From Chloroflexota bacterium (lineage in GTDB: Bacteria; Chloroflexota; UBA6077; CF-72): a stretch of DNA of 64,000 nucleotides. How positions within the stretch are numbered: the first letter of the stretch is position 1; each line of letters starts with the position of its first letter. This document shows positions 6,928 through 51,101 of the stretch, one piece after another. A program made the translations under genes and the position numbers. The notes below the pieces were generated by a model that saw only the letters and a program-made list of their open reading frames with translations, made no database searches and was not told the origin of the DNA. The stretch is taken from NCBI GenBank assembly GCA_019239775.1, contig JAFAZN010000363.1, positions 197 to 64,196 of the forward strand, written 5' to 3'.

Positions 6928-8867
6928 TACGCTGGCTCGAACGACCAGCCGTAGATGCTGCCGATCAGCAGCATCAGGCCAAGGATTGCGAAGATCGGAA
7001 TCGTCACCGGACCAAACGAATCGGCAAACAGCAGGCCGCTGGCCATCGTCGCCAGTCCGACCGCGCACAGCAGCGGCCAGAACGATGGCGACGGCATGTG
7101 GATGACCGGCGGTGCAGCATCGGGCGCCGCGACCGCGACAACGTCGTGCGCGGTTTCCGTCGCGTGACCAGGCCCGCCAGCCAGCGGCTCAACCTCGATC
7201 GGATCGAGGTGCATGCGTTCCGGATGTTTCATGGCCCACCACGCGTCGCGCGAGTGCACCGTCGGGATACGCGCAAAGTTGTAAATGGGCGGGGGTGACG
7301 GGATCGACCACTCGAGGGTGGCGCCATCCCACGGATCGTCGGGCGCGATCTCGCCGAAGCGCAAGCTGGTGAACAGATTGATCACGAACAGCAGAACTGA
7401 GAAGCCCAGACCGATCGCACCAATTGTCGAGAGCTGGTTCAGCTGGGTCACACCCAGGTCGGGACCATAGGTGTAGACGCGGCGCGGCATGCCCAGCAGC
7501 CCCGTCCAGTGCATCGGCATGAACGTGACGTTGAAGAAGATGAGGAATGTCCAGAAGTTCCATTGGCCAAGCGTCTCATTCGGCATGCGACCGCTCATCT
7601 TGGGGAACCAGTAATAGACGCCCGCGAAGAGCGCCATGATGCTGCCGCCAATCAACACGTAGTGGATGTGGGCAACGATGAAGTAGGTGTCGTGCTGGAT
7701 GAGATCAGCCGGTGGCGACGCGTGCATGATGCCGGTCACGCCACCAATGATGAACATGCTGATGAAGCCGACCGCGAACAGCATTGGTGTCTTGAAGCTG
7801 ACCGACCCTTTGAACATCGTGCCGATCCAGTTGAAGATCTTCACGCCGGTGGGCACGGCGATCAGCATCGTGCTGGAGGCAAACACCGCGTCGGCGATCG
7901 CGCCGAGGCCGACCGCGAACATGTGGTGCGCCCATACGCCAAAGGCAAGGAAGGCGATTGCGATACCCGAGTAGACCATTACGGCGTAGCCAAACAGCGG
8001 CTTGCGCGAGAACACCGGGATGATCTCGGAGACGATGCCCATGGCGGGCAAGATCAGGATGTACACCTCAGGATGGCCAAACACCCAGAAGAGGTGCTGC
8101 CACAGGACAGGGTCGCCACCATGGGGCACGCTGTAGAAGTTGGTGTCGAAGAAGCGGTCGAACATCAGCAGGATGAGTCCGACCGTGATCGACGGGAAGG
8201 CCAGCAGCAGGAGCACCATCGTGATGAGCGACATCCAGCAGAAAATGGGCAGCCGCATGAAGCCCAAGCCCGGCGCGCGCATGTTGACGATGGTTACGAA
8301 GAAGTTCAGGGCCGCGGCGATCGACGCGACGCCAAGGACCTGTAGGCCGAGCATCCAGAAGTCGATGCCAGGGCCGGGTGAGTATGTTCGGGTGGTCAGA
8401 TTGGCATAGCCGAACCAGCCTGCGTCAGGCGCACCGCCGAGCAGAAAACTGATGTTCAGCATGATGCCGCCCAGGATGAACGCCCAGTAGCTGAAGGCGT
8501 TCAGGCGTGGGAAAGCCACGTCTCGGGCGCCAATCTGCAGCGGAATGATGAAGTTGAAGAACGAGGCACCCAGGGGCATGATCGCCAGGAAGATCATGGT
8601 CGTGGCGTGCATCGTGAATAGCGAGTTGAACATCTGGGCGCTGACCAGGTTGTTCTCGGGCGTCCAGAGCTGCAGGCGGATAACGAGCGCTTCGAGGCCG
8701 CCGATCACGAAAAACGCGCCAGCTGAGACGCCGTACAGGATGCCGATGCGTTTGTGGTCGACGGTAGTCAGCCAGCTCCACAGGCCCTTGTAGGCGGGGT
8801 CTGCCAGTGTTGGCGGGGCGACGACCATTCCGCCAACGCGCGGCAGCGGTGCGCTAACTACGGCCAT
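6927..8867 (-). CDS. ctaD: Cytochrome c oxidase subunit I, A1-type
   Basis: WVFGHPEVY, WAHHMF, HDTYFIVAHIHY; two extra C-terminal TM helices after IHMPSPS. Confidence 0.97.
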   Translation of the reverse strand: MAVVSAPLPRVGGMVVAPPTLADPAYKGLWSWLTTVDHKRIGILYGVSAGAFFVIGGLEALVIRLQLWTPENNLVSAQMFNSLFTMHATTMIFLAIMPLGASFFNFIIPLQIGARDVAFPRLNAFSYWAFILGGIMLNISFLLGGAPDAGWFGYANLTTRTYSPGPGIDFWMLGLQVLGVASIAAALNFFVTIVNMRAPGLGFMRLPIFCWMSLITMVLLLLAFPSITVGLILLMFDRFFDTNFYSVPHGGDPVLWQHLFWVFGHPEVYILILPAMGIVSEIIPVFSRKPLFGYAVMVYSGIAIAFLAFGVWAHHMFAVGLGAIADAVFASSTMLIAVPTGVKIFNWIGTMFKGSVSFKTPMLFAVGFISMFIIGGVTGIMHASPPADLIQHDTYFIVAHIHYVLIGGSIMALFAGVYYWFPKMSGRMPNETLGQWNFWTFLIFFNVTFMPMHWTGLLGMPRRVYTYGPDLGVTQLNQLSTIGAIGLGFSVLLFVINLFTSLRFGEIAPDDPWDGATLEWSIPSPPPIYNFARIPTVHSRDAWWAMKHPERMHLDPIEVEPLAGGPGHATETAHDVVAVAAPDAAPPVIHMPSPSFWPLLCAVGLATMASGLLFADSFGPVTIPIFAILGLMLLIGSIYGWSFEPA

Positions 8868-44040: not shown

Positions 44041-45231
44041 ATGGCTGGCCCGCTCTCCGGCATCCGCGTTATCGACCTGACCCGCGCCCTGGCGGGTCCG
44101 TACTGCACCCTGCTGCTCGGCGACATGGGAGCCGACGTGATCAAGATCGAGCTGCCGGGCAGCGGCGACGAAACACGCCAGTGGGGCCCACCGTTTGTGG
44201 CGGGCGAAAGTAGCTACTTCATGAGCGTGAACCGCAACAAGCGCAGCGTCACGCTTGACCTCAAGTCAACAGCAGGCGTGGAAGCCCTGAGGCGGTTGAC
44301 GCAGTCCTCGGACGTGTTAGTGGAGAACTTCCGTCCGGGGACGATGGACCGTCTCGGTCTGGGGTGGGACAGAGCGCGCGAGTTGAACAGCTCGCTGGTG
44401 TATTGCGCGATCTCGGGCTTTGGGCAGGATGGCCCCCGAGCGAAGCAACCCGCCTACGACGGCATCCTGCAGGGCATGGGCGGCGTGCAGTTCCTCACGG
44501 GCGAACCGGACGGCGGTCCTACGCGGGTAGGGGTGCCGATTGCCGATATTTCGGCAGGGATGTTCGGTGCGTATGCAGTGGCCAGCGCCCTGACATGGCG
44601 CGAACGCGATCCGCAACGCCGCGGACAATTCATCGACACGTCAATGCTGGGCGGCCAGGTCGCACTGCTGTCCTACCAGGCGGGCCGTTACTTTGCCACG
44701 GGCTCGGCGCCGACTCGCATTGGCAACCGCCACGCCAGCATCGCGCCCTACGAGATGTTCCGTACCTCGGACGGCTATGTGAACGTGGCGGCGGCGAACG
44801 AGCCGATGTGGCAGCGCTTTTGTAAGGCGCTTGACCTCCAAGGTCTTTTTAGCGATCCACGCTTCGGCACGAATCCGGACCGTGTCACCAACCGTGCGGA
44901 GCTGAGCGCTCTGATCGAGGAGCGCCTGTCCAGCCTGACCCAGTCGGAGGTCATCTCTCGCCTCGAGGCCGCTGAGGTCCCGGTTGGACCCGTGTACGAC
45001 CTTGCGCAGGTCTTCAGCGATGCGCAGTCCGAGCACCTGCGCATGACGCAGCCGACGCCGCACCCCAAGGTGCCCGACCTCCGAACAACGGGCTTTCCCT
45101 GGCGGATGTCCGAAACCAACCCCGAGGTGCGCTGCCCGCCTCCACTGCTGGGGCAGCACACGACCGAGGTCTTGCGCGAGATCGGCTACACCGACTCGGA
45201 AATCGCCTCGCTGACTGCTGGCGCCGACTGA
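44041..45231 (+). CDS. Class III CoA-transferase (CaiB/BaiF/Frc family)
   Basis: PLSGIRVIDL, LGDMGADVIKIE, NRNKRS, ENFRPG, PIAD; start ATG 44041. Confidence 0.93.
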   Translation: MAGPLSGIRVIDLTRALAGPYCTLLLGDMGADVIKIELPGSGDETRQWGPPFVAGESSYFMSVNRNKRSVTLDLKSTAGVEALRRLTQSSDVLVENFRPGTMDRLGLGWDRARELNSSLVYCAISGFGQDGPRAKQPAYDGILQGMGGVQFLTGEPDGGPTRVGVPIADISAGMFGAYAVASALTWRERDPQRRGQFIDTSMLGGQVALLSYQAGRYFATGSAPTRIGNRHASIAPYEMFRTSDGYVNVAAANEPMWQRFCKALDLQGLFSDPRFGTNPDRVTNRAELSALIEERLSSLTQSEVISRLEAAEVPVGPVYDLAQVFSDAQSEHLRMTQPTPHPKVPDLRTTGFPWRMSETNPEVRCPPPLLGQHTTEVLREIGYTDSEIASLTAGAD

Positions 45232-46256
45232 GTCGGCATGTTCAGCGGCGTCCCCGCTTCAATCCCAAACGAAACCACGCCCGGGATAAGCCAGTTGGTC
45301 CACTGCTCGTCCACGCGGCGCTGAAACAGGTCGTAGTCCTCATCCTTGAAGTGAGCGAAGCGGCCCTGTTGAGCGAGGTATTCCCGCACCGGCTTGCGTT
45401 TGGCGCGCCCTGAGGCAATCGCGCGAGTGGTCCCGTTGAGCTTGACGACGTGATCCTCCATCTCCCAGAGCGACCAGATCCCGGTCTCGACCGCGAGCTT
45501 GCCGAGCTCGTGCGACAACTGGGGATCGTAGTGCCAGCCCTTGGGACAGGGATCGAGCACGTGGATGAAAGCCGGCCCGCCTGAGGCCAGGCCCTTGCGG
45601 ACCTTGTTCATGAAGTCGACGCCATAGGCCGCGTCGGCCGTGGCGATATACGCGGCGTCGGGGTGTCCAGCGACCAGCGCGCCGGGCGTGTTCTTCTTCC
45701 AGCGCGTGTGCATGATGCGGCGTTGCTTGCCGGTCGGTGAAAAGGTCGTGACCGCGCCGTAGGGCGTCGAGCCCGAAAGCTGGATATCCGTGTTGGCATA
45801 CGACTCGTTGTCGTAAAGGATCACCAGGAAGCGGTACTCGGCGTGCGTCAGCGCCGCCGAGATGGCCGAGAGCCCCATGTCCGCGCCGCCACCGTCACCG
45901 CAGAACGCGATGACGTTGATGGGCTCATCCTTCAGCTTGCCTTTGCGCATGAGCACCTTGAGGCCGGCCGAGGCGCCGAGCGCCGCGGAACCCGCCGCAC
46001 CAAGCTGCGTGTGCATCCACGGCACGACCCAGGGCGTTGTGTAGTAGCTAGTGTTGGCGACGTACATGCAGCCGGTCGAGCCCAGCACAATCGTGCGCGG
46101 CCCGGCGGCCTTGGCGATGTAGCGCATCACCAGCGCGCTCTCGCAACCCTGACAAGTACGGTGTCCCGAGACGAAGTACTCGGTGTACGGGACCTGCTTG
46201 ACGGTCTTGATCGAGCTCAGATCCACATCTGGTGGACGATCGACAGCGATAGTCAT
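45186..46256 (-). CDS. 2-oxoacid:ferredoxin oxidoreductase beta (TPP-binding) subunit, OOR-like
   Basis: GHRTCQGC, TGC, GDGG...DNESYANT, PCP. Confidence 0.92.
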   Translation of the reverse strand: MTIAVDRPPDVDLSSIKTVKQVPYTEYFVSGHRTCQGCESALVMRYIAKAAGPRTIVLGSTGCMYVANTSYYTTPWVVPWMHTQLGAAGSAALGASAGLKVLMRKGKLKDEPINVIAFCGDGGGADMGLSAISAALTHAEYRFLVILYDNESYANTDIQLSGSTPYGAVTTFSPTGKQRRIMHTRWKKNTPGALVAGHPDAAYIATADAAYGVDFMNKVRKGLASGGPAFIHVLDPCPKGWHYDPQLSHELGKLAVETGIWSLWEMEDHVVKLNGTTRAIASGRAKRKPVREYLAQQGRFAHFKDEDYDLFQRRVDEQWTNWLIPGVVSFGIEAGTPLNMPTQSAPAVSEAISESV

Positions 46257-46262
46257 TAGCGA

Positions 46263-47501
46263 TTACTCCCGAACCCCGATCCAATGCACATTGGTCTTCA
46301 ACTCGCCTGCATCGGCTTTCTGCAATAGCGTAAACATTTCCTGGCCATCCGCGGCCGTGAACTCGCGGCCGCCGAGGCCGCCGATGATGTTGATCATGGC
46401 CGGGCGCCTGGGACTGTCGTAGAAAGCCGCCCGGAACTCTGTAAAAAGCACACCCCCGTGGTGCGGCGAACCGAAGCTGTAGTCACGATCGATGATGCCG
46501 ACAGCCTTGAAGCCGCTCAGTCGCTCAATGACCTCCTCGGCTGGGAACGGCCGGAACCACTTCAGCCGAGCGAAGCCAACCTTGTGGCCTTGCTCGCGCA
46601 GGCGCCGCACGATAACGCGACCTGGCATGGCAATCGTGCCCTGGCCGACGAGCACATAATCGGCGTCGTCGGTCATGTACGTCTCCATGAACGGCTCTTT
46701 CTGGCGGCCAGTCAGCTCGTAGTACTCGCGGTAGGCGTCGCGGATCACTTCAGGTGCGCGGCGCATCGCGGCATCGTTCTGCTTGCGAATCTCGGTCAGC
46801 CAGTCCTGGTCGACCTGCGGCGCGATGGTGATCGGGTTGTCCGGGTGAAACAGACGGTCGCCGAGGTCGTACGCCGGCAGGAATTTGTCCACCATTTCGC
46901 GCGGCGGCACCTTGACCAGGTGCTGCGAGTGCGTCAGGAACGCACCATCGGTGCTCACCGCGCACGGCAACATCACGCGCGGATCTTCGGCCACCTTGTA
47001 AGCGATCAGCGCCGCATCCAGGGCTTCCTGGCCGGTTTCGACCCAGGTCATGAGCCAACCGAGATCGCGGACGGCGAGGGCGTCGTTGTGCTCGACGCCG
47101 AATGCCCCTGGATCATCCAGCGCACGGTTGCCAACGTTAGCCACGACCGGAAGGCGCAGACCGGCCGTCACAGCGATGGCTTCAAAGGCGTAGAACCAAC
47201 CCACACCCGAGCTGCCCACGAAGGCACGTGCGCCTACGGCACTGGCGTGCTTGACCAGCTCGAACTGAGAGTGCTCGCCCTCGGCGACGATGTACTCGCA
47301 GTCCATCTCGCCGTTGGCGATCATCGTCGCGACGGCTTGCATGACCGCGTCGTAGGGCCGAATTGGATACGCGGCAACGATGTCGACGTCCGCGAGCCGT
47401 AGTGCGTGCGCGATGGCTTCCGAGCCTGTGACCAGGAGCTCTTGCTCGCCCTCCAACTTGGGCGCCGATGCCGCCGCTCCAGGTTGTGTCGCAATGGCCA
47501 T
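46263..47501 (-). CDS. 2-oxoacid:ferredoxin oxidoreductase alpha subunit, OOR-like
   Basis: YPIRP, EGEH, SSGVG, NRALD, FRPFP, GLGG. Confidence 0.93.
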   Translation of the reverse strand: MAIATQPGAAASAPKLEGEQELLVTGSEAIAHALRLADVDIVAAYPIRPYDAVMQAVATMIANGEMDCEYIVAEGEHSQFELVKHASAVGARAFVGSSGVGWFYAFEAIAVTAGLRLPVVANVGNRALDDPGAFGVEHNDALAVRDLGWLMTWVETGQEALDAALIAYKVAEDPRVMLPCAVSTDGAFLTHSQHLVKVPPREMVDKFLPAYDLGDRLFHPDNPITIAPQVDQDWLTEIRKQNDAAMRRAPEVIRDAYREYYELTGRQKEPFMETYMTDDADYVLVGQGTIAMPGRVIVRRLREQGHKVGFARLKWFRPFPAEEVIERLSGFKAVGIIDRDYSFGSPHHGGVLFTEFRAAFYDSPRRPAMINIIGGLGGREFTAADGQEMFTLLQKADAGELKTNVHWIGVRE

Positions 47502-47504
47502 GGC

Positions 47505-48698
47505 TTACTCCTCACCTCCGGCCACCGTCACTGGCCACTTTCTCTCCTGGACATCGTGTACAGCGGCAGTTTTCTTGGCCTTTTCCACCAACTCCGGGTG
47601 GAGCGGAACACCATGTTTCTGGAGGAACGCGCGGTAGGCCTCAGGGTCCGCCTTGTAGACCGCGTACAGACTGTCGTTATCGTCGAACGCCAGCTCGTTG
47701 ACCATCACGATGCAGTCCGGTACCGGACAGACTTCTTCGCAGATCGAGCAGCCGATGCACGCCTCGTACACCACCTCGTAGGTACCTTCAGGCGTTACCT
47801 CGAAGCACTCGTCCGGGCATTGCAGCCAGCACTGCGTGCACTTGATGCAGGTGTCGAAATTGACGAGTGGGCGCCGCGTGCGGGTGCTCCACTTTTTGTA
47901 GAGCGGATTGCGCGTGCCAACCTGCTGTGCCTCGACGATGATGCCCTCGCGCATCTGGGTCCAGCCGGGCTTCTGGTACTCCTCGAACGAGGTGCTGCTG
48001 CCCTCGCCAGCATTCACGGGGCGTATCTTGAGCTGGTCGTAGTTGGCCTTGACGGCGTTGACTCGGGCCTCGTCCTTGGTGCGCTCTCGCACCAGAGTCA
48101 ATACCGTGTCCAGCGAGACGACCTGGGGTGCCACGCGTGCCACAGCGGCGAGGCAGTTCCAGTCCGTGTTGTCGTCGTTGTCGACCCACAGCCCGGCGAA
48201 GCTCGCCGAACCCTCCGGTGCGAACACGCCCGCGTGCACCGGGCTCGGCACCACGACCAGGGTGTAGTCGTAGGGTTTGGTCTTTATCGCCTTGAGCAGC
48301 TCCTCGGGTTCCTTGTCCGAGGTGACCAGGAGAAAACCACCTGGCACCACCAGCTTGTTGATGGGCTGCACGCCGTACCAGGCCCAGGACTCAACGCCCT
48401 TGCTCATGGTGTCGTCGACCACGATCGAAATTTCGACGCGCTCGGGTTCGTAGCGAGCCAGGGAAGACTCCAGCTCGACCTCATCGGTGGCTACTACGGC
48501 GAAGTTTTTGGATGGGATACCGTTGCGCTCGGGCGAATCGCCGTAACGCGCAAAGGCTGTGCCGACTTTGCCTTCACGACGCGCGCCCAGGACGACGCCG
48601 CGCGAAATACGATTGGCGAGCCGCTTCTGGAAAATGCCGCGGTACACGACCTCGACAGACCAGGAGGCTGGCGCGGACGCCGAGCCGTTTGGGTGCAT
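47505..48698 (-). CDS. 2-oxoacid:ferredoxin oxidoreductase gamma subunit fused to 2x[4Fe-4S] ferredoxin
   Basis: YGDSPERNGIP gamma motif; CIKCTQCWLQCP and CIGCSICEEVCP; SD GGAGGT before ATG 48698. Confidence 0.9.
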   Translation of the reverse strand: MHPNGSASAPASWSVEVVYRGIFQKRLANRISRGVVLGARREGKVGTAFARYGDSPERNGIPSKNFAVVATDEVELESSLARYEPERVEISIVVDDTMSKGVESWAWYGVQPINKLVVPGGFLLVTSDKEPEELLKAIKTKPYDYTLVVVPSPVHAGVFAPEGSASFAGLWVDNDDNTDWNCLAAVARVAPQVVSLDTVLTLVRERTKDEARVNAVKANYDQLKIRPVNAGEGSSTSFEEYQKPGWTQMREGIIVEAQQVGTRNPLYKKWSTRTRRPLVNFDTCIKCTQCWLQCPDECFEVTPEGTYEVVYEACIGCSICEEVCPVPDCIVMVNELAFDDNDSLYAVYKADPEAYRAFLQKHGVPLHPELVEKAKKTAAVHDVQERKWPVTVAGGEE

Positions 48699-48730
48699 AG
48701 CCTGCACCTCCCTCACTTTAAGTGGCTGGA

Positions 48731-48770
48731 TGGTCTGACCAATTTTCGGCATCCGCTCAAGGGCTGTCAA
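48731..48770 (-). promoter_or_regulatory. OFOR operon promoter with FadR-subfamily operator
   Basis: TTGACA-17 nt-GAAAAT, immediately followed by the palindrome TGGTCAGACCA (48731-48741). Confidence 0.7.
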
Positions 48771-48804
48771 GCGACGTACCCTTGGAAGCTGGAGTCTGGT
48801 TTAG

Positions 48805-49581
48805 ATGGCCGAATACGAGTATGTGCTGTCGAGCATCGATGGTGCCGTCGGCATTGTGACGTTGAACCGACCAAAGCAGCTCAATGCGCTGGCGGGACCG
48901 ATGATGCGCGAGCTGGTGGATGCGCTCGAAGGACTCGATGCCAATCAGGATGTACGTGCGATCGTCATCACCGGCGGGCCAACCGTGTTTGCGGCGGGAG
49001 CGGACATCAAGGACATGTCCGACGCCACTCCGGTCGACATGTTGCTGCGCAACAACATCGGCCTGTGGGACCGACTAAAGAAGGTGAGCAAGCCGTTGAT
49101 CGCCGCCGTCGCGGGCTACGCATTGGGCGGTGGCTGCGAGCTGGCGATGCTTTGCGACATCATCGTCGCGGCCGAAAATGCGCGGTTTGGCCAACCCGAG
49201 ATCAACATCGGCTTGATGCCAGGCGCGGGCGGCACGCAGCGTTTGACGCGCTCGATCGGCAAGTTCCTGGCGGCGGACATGATCCTCACGGGGCGGATGC
49301 TGTCCGCTGAGGAGGCCCTTCAGCATGGACTCGCGGCGCGCGTGGTGCCGCACGAGCTGATCGTGGACGAGGCTGTGCGGCTGGGCAAACAGTTAGCGAA
49401 ACAGCCACCGGTGGCGCTGCGGCTCGCCAAGGAAGCGATCACGCGTGCCTTCGAAGGTCGTGTCGACGACGGCATCGAGTTCGAACGCAAGACGTTCTAT
49501 CTGCTGTTTGCAACCCAGGATGCGCACGAGGGCATGCAGGCGTTCATCGAGCGGCGCCAGCCGACCTACCAGGGTCGCTGA
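48805..49581 (+). CDS. Enoyl-CoA hydratase (PaaF-like)
   Basis: FAAGADI, GGGCELA, GQPEI..G..PGAGGTQRL; both catalytic Glu present. Confidence 0.92.
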   Translation: MAEYEYVLSSIDGAVGIVTLNRPKQLNALAGPMMRELVDALEGLDANQDVRAIVITGGPTVFAAGADIKDMSDATPVDMLLRNNIGLWDRLKKVSKPLIAAVAGYALGGGCELAMLCDIIVAAENARFGQPEINIGLMPGAGGTQRLTRSIGKFLAADMILTGRMLSAEEALQHGLAARVVPHELIVDEAVRLGKQLAKQPPVALRLAKEAITRAFEGRVDDGIEFERKTFYLLFATQDAHEGMQAFIERRQPTYQGR

Positions 49582-50351
49582 TGCCGATAGCGGTGCAGGG
49601 CCCTATCGAGGGCGTGCAGACCATCACGCTGAATCAGCCAGACAAGCTCAATGCGCTCTCGGCCGAGATGCTGCGCGAGCTCAGCCAGGCCGTTCGCGCG
49701 GCTGAACGCGACGATGCAGTTCGCGCCGTGGTGCTGACTGGGGCTGGAAGCGGCTTCTGCTCGGGCGCGGACATCAGCGAGTTCAGCACGGAACTGGAAG
49801 CGGGTGAGCACCTGCGTTCGACGTTCAATCCGCTGATCACGCGCTTGCACACTCTCGAGAAGCCGGTCCTCGCCGCGATAAACGGCGTTGCGGCTGGTGC
49901 TGGACTGAGCCTCGCGCTCGCGTGCGACCTGCGCTTTGCGGCTTCGTCGGCGCGTCTGGTCGTGGCGTTTATCCGTATCGGCCTGGTCCCTGACGCGGGT
50001 CTGACTTACTTCCTTCCGCGTCTCATCGGACCGGCGAAAACCCTGGAGCTCGCCTGGACCGGCGATCCGATTGGCGCGACCGAAGCCTACGAGTTGGGCT
50101 TGCTGAACAAGGTCGTGCCTGACGACCAGGTGGTCTCGCACGCGCAAGAGCTCGCGAGCCGCTTGGCCACTGCACCGCGAAAAGCCGTCGCACTCGTCAA
50201 ACGCGCGGTGAACCAGGCTCACGAGCTACCAATCGAGCGCGTGCTGGAGATGGAGGCCGCCTACCAGACCATTGCCTCGCGCGATGCCAACTTCGCCGAA
50301 GGCCTGGCCGCGTTTCGCGAAAAGCGCCCGCCGCGCTTCAACGATAAGTAA
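49581..50351 (+). CDS. Enoyl-CoA hydratase/isomerase (PaaG-like)
   Basis: FCSGAD, AAGAG.SLALACD, GLVPDAG. Confidence 0.88.
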   Translation: MPIAVQGPIEGVQTITLNQPDKLNALSAEMLRELSQAVRAAERDDAVRAVVLTGAGSGFCSGADISEFSTELEAGEHLRSTFNPLITRLHTLEKPVLAAINGVAAGAGLSLALACDLRFAASSARLVVAFIRIGLVPDAGLTYFLPRLIGPAKTLELAWTGDPIGATEAYELGLLNKVVPDDQVVSHAQELASRLATAPRKAVALVKRAVNQAHELPIERVLEMEAAYQTIASRDANFAEGLAAFREKRPPRFNDK

Positions 50352-50390
50352 CTTCAGGGGTCCAGGATCCCTCCTGGTTCTCGTTTACTG

Positions 50391-51101
50391 CTACTTGGCG
50401 GCTTCGGTTTCGAGCGCGCGCAGGATGCCGTCCCGCACGAGTGTGATGTGCTCGAGCGAGGCGTCGTACGCCGCCTGCGGATCGTGCGCCTTGATCGCGC
50501 TGAGGATCGCCTCGTGTCCGCGCAGGCTGAGCTGCGGCCGATCGGGCACATGCAGATAGCTCTGGCGTGACTCGCGCAGCAGGTCCAGGATGAGGTTGTG
50601 CAGCCGTAGCAGGATGTGGTTATCGGCGGCTTGCGCCAGCGTGTAGTGGAACGCGGTGTCCTCGTCCACAAACGGGCGGCCTTCCAGAATGCAGTGGCGC
50701 TGGCGTTCCAACAACGATTCGAGCTGCGCAATGTGCTCCGCACTTGCGCGCTGAGCCGCACCGCGCGCGATCCCTGGCTCGATCAGCTCGCGCACCTCGA
50801 GCACCTCTGCCAGCTCCTGCCGCCCGCGCAGAATCGCCGCCGCCAAGGGCGGTACCAGCGCCTCGGTATCAGCGGTGCGCACGAATGTGCCACCACCCTG
50901 ACGGCTGTCGATGACGCCTTGCATCTCTAGCGCGCGCAGGGCTTCGCGAACCGACGTACGTGATACACGGAAGCGTTCGGCAAGCTCGCGTTCGGGTGGG
51001 ATCTGGTCGCCTGGCGCCCAGCGACCTTCGCGAATCAGTGCGCGAATCTGCTCGACGATGCGCTCGTAGATCCGACTTCGCTTGACGGGTTCGATCAGCA
51101 C
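50391..51101 (-). CDS. GntR/FadR family transcriptional regulator
   Basis: PPERELA..F.VSRTSVREAL HTH; FCD domain (D..FH, H); start GTG 51101. Confidence 0.93.
   Translation of the reverse strand: MLIEPVKRSRIYERIVEQIRALIREGRWAPGDQIPPERELAERFRVSRTSVREALRALEMQGVIDSRQGGGTFVRTADTEALVPPLAAAILRGRQELAEVLEVRELIEPGIARGAAQRASAEHIAQLESLLERQRHCILEGRPFVDEDTAFHYTLAQAADNHILLRLHNLILDLLRESRQSYLHVPDRPQLSLRGHEAILSAIKAHDPQAAYDASLEHITLVRDGILRALETEAAK

Follow-up and report, generated by a model that had tools for sequence, protein, structure and literature searches.

Oxalate oxidoreductase (OOR) has been characterised from one anaerobic acetogen only, Moorella thermoacetica. In PMC5020499, the motif YPIRP is described as unique to OOR, with Arg31 of this motif binding oxalate, and Arg31 together with Asp116 drives a "bait-and-switch" mechanism for which coenzyme A (CoA) is not required. 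PMC8091585 and PMC13768988 assign CoA binding to domain III, by way of a phosphate loop. The window analysed here is the whole stretch of 64,000 nucleotides from a Chloroflexota bacterium (GenBank assembly GCA_019239775.1, contig JAFAZN010000363.1, positions 197 to 64,196 of the forward strand). It contains the genes of a three-subunit enzyme that is, by tree position and motifs, an uncharacterised member of a large and tightly conserved sister clade of OOR. In this oxygen-respiring bacterium, the enzyme probably serves as an oxalate:ferredoxin oxidoreductase that works without CoA; it would convert oxalate to two CO2 and would be induced through a regulator of the FadR subfamily.

Assignment of the enzyme

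The genes for the fusion, alpha, and beta subunits are adjacent to each other and are all located on the minus strand.

47505..48698, minus strand: gamma-delta fusion (domain III plus a 2x[4Fe-4S] ferredoxin domain), 397 amino acids (aa) from the ATG at 48698
46263..47501, minus strand: alpha subunit (domains I-II), 412 aa
45186..46256, minus strand: beta subunit (domain VI; thiamine pyrophosphate [TPP]/Mg motif GDG...DNE; proximal cluster Cys35/38/63/237), 356 aa

The ATG at 48698 is probably the start of the fusion gene, rather than the TTG at 48770, because a ribosome-binding site is positioned at 48707-48714 and the homologues align from this ATG. Domains I, II, III, V, and VI, the TPP/Mg motif, and three [4Fe-4S] sites place the enzyme into the superfamily of 2-oxoacid:ferredoxin oxidoreductases (OFOR), and the layout of alpha, beta, and a fused III-V subunit is that of OOR. 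Eight Cys residues of the fusion subunit were invariant in 15 of 15 aligned sequences. The source assembly comprises 7.2 Mb and is 91% complete. The G+C content of the enzyme genes and that of their third codon positions (GC3) were similar to those of the flanking genes and therefore gave no sign of a recent transfer; the closest relatives of the locus are labelled Chloroflexota.

The best match in the PDB was an OOR chain for all three subunits, with E values of 2.7e-101 for alpha against Moorella OOR alpha (best pyruvate:ferredoxin oxidoreductase [PFOR], 6.3e-64), 2.7e-88 for beta (next match, 2e-54), and 3.7e-15 for the fusion subunit against OOR delta. The AlphaFold model of alpha (pLDDT 87) matched 5C4I_A at a TM of 0.89 with 42% identity in the structural alignment, and the top 8 fold matches of the fusion model (pLDDT 75) were all OOR delta chains (E 1e-20, 22% identity). 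The OOR models of NCBIfam (NF045790-NF045792) ranked first for all three subunits.

The position of the enzyme among its relatives was evaluated in a FastTree tree of alpha subunits with 107 rows, which were representatives of 365-435 aa plus chosen locus and cluster proteins; 6 of 113 rows that were partial or frameshifted (P0136, P0140, P0184, P0196, P0226, P0268) had been left out. The rows are named after the residue at the position of Arg31 (Arg- or Thr-type) or of Asp116 (Asp- or Ala-type). The 25 Arg-type rows stood apart from the 82 Thr-type rows (support 99), the 17 Ala-type rows formed one side of a branch (support 100), and the 5 Asp-type rows split off together (support 99). Moorella OOR is not in this tree and is represented by stand-ins with an alpha above the NCBIfam OOR cut-off (the controls P0133 and P0168 and the alpha of locus L126 are above it), and with these stand-ins the window enzyme was placed outside the Asp-type clade, on its sister branch. 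Because of this tree position and of scores below the OOR cut-offs, which are given below, the enzyme is assigned to a sister clade and not to OOR itself: to judge from these data, it is OOR-like by design, yet not an OOR member by the curated tests.

Homologues in the sources mostly carry the name "pyruvate ferredoxin oxidoreductase," and the PorA model gave 335 bits for alpha, not far under the 384 bits of the OOR model. An ordinary PFOR, which these data would favour, is nevertheless very unlikely. Arg takes the place of the Thr residue of YPITP, domain III is without the CoA loop, the alpha tree separates the window enzyme from the Thr-type alphas, and the source genome already possesses a canonical fused PFOR with YPITP. 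An OGOR-type alpha is encoded in this genome as well. Phenylglyoxylate dehydrogenase was tried as another candidate and rejected, since the PadF, PadG, and PadI models (NF045763-NF045766) scored far under their cut-offs (PadG, 265 of 700; PadI, 160 of 700); no PadH-like gene was found in the enzyme cluster of the window.

The clade was not described in literature found on oxalate oxidoreductase, YPIRP, and Asp116/Arg31, which did not cover the primary OOR papers, where homologues with variants of Asp116 may possibly be listed. A tblastn search of plasmids yielded four distant matches (32-35% identity), none of them to a named member of the clade, and protein-cluster look-ups revealed no cultured one. 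The 427 short contigs from one metatranscriptome, which contained 5% of the sequence words, were mostly less than 95% alike; they come from relatives and are no evidence for expression in the source organism.

Some relatives deserve mention of their own. Deep Arg-type variants carry the loop RALDDPGNF, with Asn at position 116, or combine LPIRP with RVLDQPGSF; P0132, P0274, and P0241, among which these variants occur, are by their motifs further uncharacterised OOR relatives. In locus L133 (10673-17024), the clade operon is closely followed downstream by another FadR-like gene and another OFOR alpha/beta pair. The fusion subunit continues about 55 residues past the end of OOR delta (window positions about 47505-47690, minus strand), and this tail has a conserved part predicted to be helical in 14 of the 14 Ala-clade rows aligned; it may possibly serve in shielding or in binding of a partner.

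Active-site residues and the CoA loop

Of the 166 loci in which conservation was evaluated, 80 are the best of 348 GTDB matches, 80 are the best of 577 metagenome matches, and 6 were taken from the genomes of relatives; this set is biased toward close relatives. The sites concerned are as follows.

47355..47369, minus strand: YPIRP motif of alpha (Arg48, equivalent to OOR Arg31)
47100..47126, minus strand: RALDDPGAF of alpha, equivalent to the switch loop (Arg126, Asp130, Ala133)
45786..45788, minus strand: Asp157 of beta (NTDIQ), a Gly in the OOR and PFOR-type betas checked
48624..48644, minus strand: YRGIFQK in domain III, at the place of the Gly-rich CoA phosphate loop

The alpha loop RALDDPGAFGVEH aligned without gaps to RTLDPPGDFGEEH of Moorella OOR alpha. 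In this alignment, Arg109 of OOR is kept as Arg126, Asp116 corresponds to Ala133, and Pro113 corresponds to Asp130. RALDDPGAFG was present in all 166 loci, and YPIRP or FPIRP, containing the equivalent of Arg31, in 163 of the 163 loci covered at this site. Among 318 stored proteins, 197 possessed the loop, with the residue pairs at positions 113/116 being Asp/Ala in 167 cases, Pro/Asp in 25, Asp/Asn in 3, and Gln/Ser in 2; a Pro/Ala or an Asp/Asp pair did not occur among these 197. The acid may have moved within the loop instead of being lost. The beta subunit contributes another change, NTDIQ instead of the NTGIQ of OOR, which places Asp157 at the position of Gly145. Of 147 covered loci, 146 have this change and only L068, a basal archaeal member, lacks it; in the betas of OOR and of PFOR type that were checked, the motif reads NTGIQ, NTGGQ, or NTGQQ. 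Beta Asp157 as the sole compensation for the lost Asp116 was rejected because L068 is without it.

At the place of the phosphate loop in domain III, the fused PFOR of the same genome has GLGSDG and the PorG of a relative GRGGQG, while ARGVVMN is found in OOR and YRGIFQK in the window enzyme. No Gly-rich CoA loop was present in any of the 145 covered clade domain III sequences. The structure of OOR presumably blocks CoA. The residues at this site favour CoA independence of the window enzyme as well.

An earlier note on this DNA, made from the sequence without database searches, had read the locus as an OOR-like enzyme with an altered active-site loop. Its three subunits were recovered as co-oriented genes on the minus strand, the gap-free alignment bore out both YPIRP and the Ala residue in place of Asp116, and its view of an uncharacterised OOR-clade enzyme rather than a pyruvate-specific PorABDG agrees with the tree, YPIRP, and the absent Gly-rich loop. 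Its account of the altered loop was right for the Ala residue and overlooked the gain of Asp130 at the position of Pro113 and the Gly145-to-Asp change in beta. The changed CoA dependence it had suggested is disfavoured, because the CoA-binding loop is missing as in OOR.

Regulator, promoter, and operator

50391..51101, minus strand: regulator of the GntR/FadR family with an FCD domain, predicted repressor; start codon inferred
48742..48770, minus strand: promoter-like site TTGACA-17-GAAAAT
48731..48741, strand not assigned: palindromic operator-like site TGGTCAGACCA, directly past the −10 box

A FadR gene was present in 123 of the 166 loci and in 116 of these 123 it was adjacent to the enzyme genes and co-oriented with them. 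Of 127 loci, 68 carry the strict palindrome TGGTCNGACCA upstream of the operon; a relaxed operator pattern was matched in 88 of the 127, compared to none of 127 control stretches inside alpha. In the window, the strict operator has a single match (0.11 expected), located 33 bp before the ATG at 48698 and directly behind the promoter-like site of the enzyme operon. This promoter-like site was the only one between 43900 and 51400, with 1.3 expected by chance, so that only its position is informative. A scan of the genome for the strict operator gave 13 matches against 8.2 expected, with only the window site at a promoter, and it did not reveal a wider regulon pointing to the inducer; upstream of FadR itself, no strict operator was found in the window. 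A conserved regulator and a palindromic operator at the promoter are thus both in place for a FadR-regulated operon, and FadR is predicted to repress the enzyme operon at this site. In the lineage of the window, paaF-paaG separate FadR from the enzyme genes, which have kept the operator beside them. The FadR protein itself scored below every named cut-off (NanR, LldR, PdhR, and GlcC models).

An ABC transporter of the BMP/PnrA type is encoded upstream of FadR in L010 (894-4029) and in about 27-30 loci of Limnocylindria, which is probably synteny by descent.

Substrate and proposed reaction

Oxalate is favoured as the substrate because the neighbourhoods of the relatives, with an antiporter and a ligase, point to it. 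A homologue of the oxalate/formate antiporter was found in 42 of the 166 loci, in 37 of them directly behind beta and on the same strand. In the three Ala-clade examples scanned (L043, L075, L123) and in the Asp-type L126, this protein was above the TIGR04259 cut-off. Of 41 related genomes, 17 have an Arg-type enzyme and 24 have none; the antiporter was present in 9 of the former and in 1 of the latter, a count in which at most 33 candidates were scored per genome and kin are not independent. The source genome itself encodes an antiporter with 565 bits (cut-off 335), which stands alone on contig C398 (L210, 440-1651). A gene similar to those for oxalate-CoA ligases occurred in 10 of 166 loci, and the best PDB matches of the example tested were oxalate-CoA ligases (E 1e-125). 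A PanE-like reductase was encoded in 15 loci and an aminotransferase in 7; Frc-like and Oxc-like genes were absent from all 166. Oxalyl-CoA is reduced to glyoxylate by PanE2 of Methylobacterium (PMC8411744). The source genome also contains a formate dehydrogenase alpha above its cut-off, a small ferredoxin-like open reading frame, and four full-length genes for heme-copper oxidase subunit I, in agreement with the aerobic oxidases that the earlier note had assigned to the organism. Two of the four are inside the window, at 877-2250 and 7413-8750 on the minus strand and within 8 kb.

Two loci were observed besides. In L151 (961-11812; also in L156, L159, L166, L171, and L203), genes for an aminotransferase, an oxalate-CoA-ligase-like protein, a PanE-like reductase, FadR, the enzyme, and the antiporter follow in a run, which is a candidate for a complete module of oxalate assimilation and oxidation. 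L126 (5968-10905; G028, same order) has an Asp-type OOR with an adjacent antiporter, with alpha and delta above the cut-off and beta just below.

Alternatively, an enzyme of the same CoA-free design may prefer another small acid, with the moved acids reshaping the pocket: glyoxylate, which would be converted to formate and CO2, oxamate, or mesoxalate. This is rather unlikely, with evidence on both sides. A distinct and very conserved clade with the loop RALDDPGAFG in 166 of 166 loci suggests a specificity of its own, and an enzyme that releases formate would go well with the antiporter; the antiporter is also adjacent to the Asp-type OOR of L126, so that the formate argument fails to separate the clades. 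The ligase, the PanE-like reductase, and the aminotransferase of the L151-type loci could supply glyoxylate, but the ligase occurs in just those 10 loci, and a conversion of oxalate to glyoxylate only for its oxidation would waste ATP. The replacement of the antiporter by TctABC in 13 loci agrees with another acid, and so does the operator: its core TGGTCTGACCA is identical to the best, high-affinity site of the Corynebacterium lactate regulator LldR (PMC2602784), so that the inducer need not be oxalate. On the other hand, both arginines are kept and the net charge of the loop is unchanged, which fits a dianion. The different substrate proposed in the earlier note is possible, but the neighbourhoods of the relatives indicate oxalate itself.

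The assignment to oxalate has to be weighed against a number of findings. The function is predicted from sequence for every member of the clade. All three subunits missed the NCBIfam OOR cut-offs (alpha, 384 of 500; beta, 363 of 590; fusion, 106 of 230). Asp116, which is important in the bait-and-switch mechanism of OOR, is absent, and L068 has the Ala residue in the alpha loop yet keeps the Gly residue in beta. The placement of Asp130 and Asp157 is predicted from the sequence, and the block of the model concerned has a pLDDT of 53; the residue swaps are probably about one event each on the tree, which makes the counts not independent. The antiporter evidence is narrow: a single cluster at 80% identity accounts for 38 of the 42 loci, with about five lineages in all, and of the 86 Chloroflexota-rich genome loci no more than 3 contain the antiporter. 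TctABC takes its place in the 13 loci mentioned, most loci have neither, and most Chloroflexota loci are without an oxalate gene. In 8 of 16 Ala-type genomes, again with at most 33 candidates scored per genome, no antiporter was seen, and that of the source genome is unlinked to the enzyme and without a strict operator upstream. The antiporter needs formate as a counter-ion, and OOR makes none. Finally, an adjacent pair of frc-like (formyl-CoA-transferase-like) and oxc-like (oxalyl-CoA-decarboxylase/2-hydroxyacyl-CoA-lyase-like) genes on contig C17 (L086, 1453-4333), with both proteins below the cut-off, possibly serves oxalate or formyl-CoA already in a CoA-dependent manner.

In the oxalate reaction proposed here, oxalate would enter the cell through the unlinked antiporter encoded on C398, and a small-acid inducer would lift the repression exerted by FadR at the operator behind the promoter. 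The enzyme, with TPP as well as three [4Fe-4S] clusters, would oxidise oxalate to two CO2 without CoA: Arg48 and Arg126 would hold the dicarboxylate, Asp130 would supply the acid that OOR has at Asp116, perhaps helped by beta Asp157, and the TPP adduct would lose CO2 twice. The two low-potential electrons would pass via the Fe-S clusters to ferredoxin. Operation in the reverse, CO2-fixing direction was set aside as thermodynamically unfavourable.

Neighbouring genes for CoA metabolism

44041..45231, plus strand: class III CoA-transferase, closest to succinate-hydroxymethylglutarate CoA-transferase, probable bystander
48805..49581, plus strand: PaaF-like enoyl-CoA hydratase, likely bystander
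49581..50351, plus strand: PaaG-like crotonase/isomerase, likely bystander

The adjacency of these genes to the enzyme genes, in the window and in close relatives, would suit a CoA-dependent enzyme that works together with the CoA-transferase and the crotonases in an undescribed small-acid pathway, and the class III CoA-transferase, present in 10 of 166 loci, scores against the CoA:oxalate transferase YfdE (E 3e-81). This reading is very unlikely. The CoA genes are on the opposite strand, with the CoA-transferase gene converging on the beta gene in a 46-bp overlap, and the CoA loop is absent from domain III. PaaF-like genes were found in only 5 and PaaG-like genes in only 4 of the 166 loci. 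In the 61 long loci, FadR was present in 52, the CoA-transferase in 8, and PaaF- and PaaG-like genes in 3 each. Of the 10 loci with a CoA-transferase, 6 have orthologues (67-84% identity), and the other 4, from Dehalococcoidia, have a paralogue of 36-38% identity. The best matches of the transferase were succinate-(hydroxymethyl)glutarate transferases, its family has about 20 copies in the source genome, and the other paa genes of this genome are on other contigs.

Comparison within the family of the source organism separated the two groups of genes. The enzyme and FadR occurred together in 9 of 11 genomes, including that of the window, and both were missing from G007 and G009. G007, from the same genus and 93% complete, has genes for UDG, the CoA-transferase, PaaF, PaaG, and an MsrP-like protein in one run, with 66 bp between the transferase gene and paaF, and neither the enzyme nor FadR was found; in G009 (77% complete), paaF-paaG are present, and the transferase, the enzyme, and FadR were not found. 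Since G007 and G009 keep CoA genes without the enzyme, the presence of the enzyme and of its regulator varies independently of the CoA genes around them. In G030, from another family, the enzyme is located near the CoA-transferase, which hints at a loss of the enzyme and FadR in G007 rather than a gain elsewhere. The crotonases are likely unrelated bystanders and the CoA-transferase a probable one; together, they would form a separate gene run for a CoA-bound acid (phenylacetate-like) that is interrupted by the enzyme genes. In L222 (1501-2234; G001), the alignment of the paaF-like gene falls into two pieces and its open frame is short, so that the gene may be broken.

The local gene cluster is not a new pathway. 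The catabolic cluster of the earlier note falls apart by strand, with the CoA-transferase and the crotonases on the plus strand and the enzyme and FadR on the minus strand, and its small-acid pathway defined by the neighbours is not supported, because the crotonases and, to a large extent, the CoA-transferase are not conserved with the enzyme. What held of the expected conservation is that FadR travels with the enzyme.

Significance

If the clade oxidises oxalate, the reaction extends from one acetogen to abundant uncultured Chloroflexota and other phyla. GTDB species genomes yielded 348 related stretches; Nitrospinota, Alphaproteobacteria, and one archaeon are represented among the 80 retained. 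A recent survey of oxalotrophy (PMC10192776) was limited to oxc, frc, oxdC, and oxlT, and its text does not contain the word "oxidoreductase". Tentatively, the clade may represent a widespread one-step, CoA-free route from oxalate to CO2 in oxygen-respiring soil and water bacteria, with the catalytic acid moved by three residues compared to OOR and a second acid provided by beta, a route invisible to surveys for these four genes. With its natural Asp116Ala/Pro113Asp swap, the clade lends itself to testing the bait-and-switch mechanism. The label "pyruvate ferredoxin oxidoreductase" could inflate the calls of PFOR and of the reverse tricarboxylic acid cycle in genome surveys. New from this window are the exchange of Pro113 for Asp, the comparison with G007, which breaks up the supposed cluster, and the retention of the operator by the enzyme genes.

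Comparison with known systems

The closest described system, OOR of M. thermoacetica (PDB 5C4I, 5EXD, 5EXE), shares with the window enzyme the three-subunit layout with a fused domain III and ferredoxin, the fold, YPIRP, and the lack of a Gly-rich CoA loop, and in alignment numbering alpha Arg109, Asp112, Phe117, and Gln211 and beta Asn143 are kept. The window enzyme differs from it by Asp116 to Ala, Pro113 to Asp, and beta Gly145 to Asp, by an ESWAWYG insertion and a C-terminal tail in the fusion subunit, and by its host, which has genes for heme-copper oxidases; Moorella, in contrast, is an acetogen and anaerobic. PFOR and VOR of the PorABDG type (Methanosarcina acetivorans PFOR, PDB 9BT4) have the same domain set and fold (alpha TM 0.88) but are CoA-dependent, with YPITP, a GRGGQG loop, and separate gamma and delta subunits, and they are located on the other side of the tree. 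Phenylglyoxylate dehydrogenase, PadEFGHI, is a CoA-dependent enzyme. It also belongs to the OFOR family and is encoded among genes for aromatic acids, comparable to the paaF/paaG-like neighbours here, while the window beta lacks its extra ferredoxin domain. The regulator resembles the FadR-subfamily repressors (Corynebacterium LldR; the NanR, LldR, PdhR, and GlcC models) in its GntR and FCD domains and in the operator core, and it differs from them in that its gene is set apart from the target by paaF-paaG.

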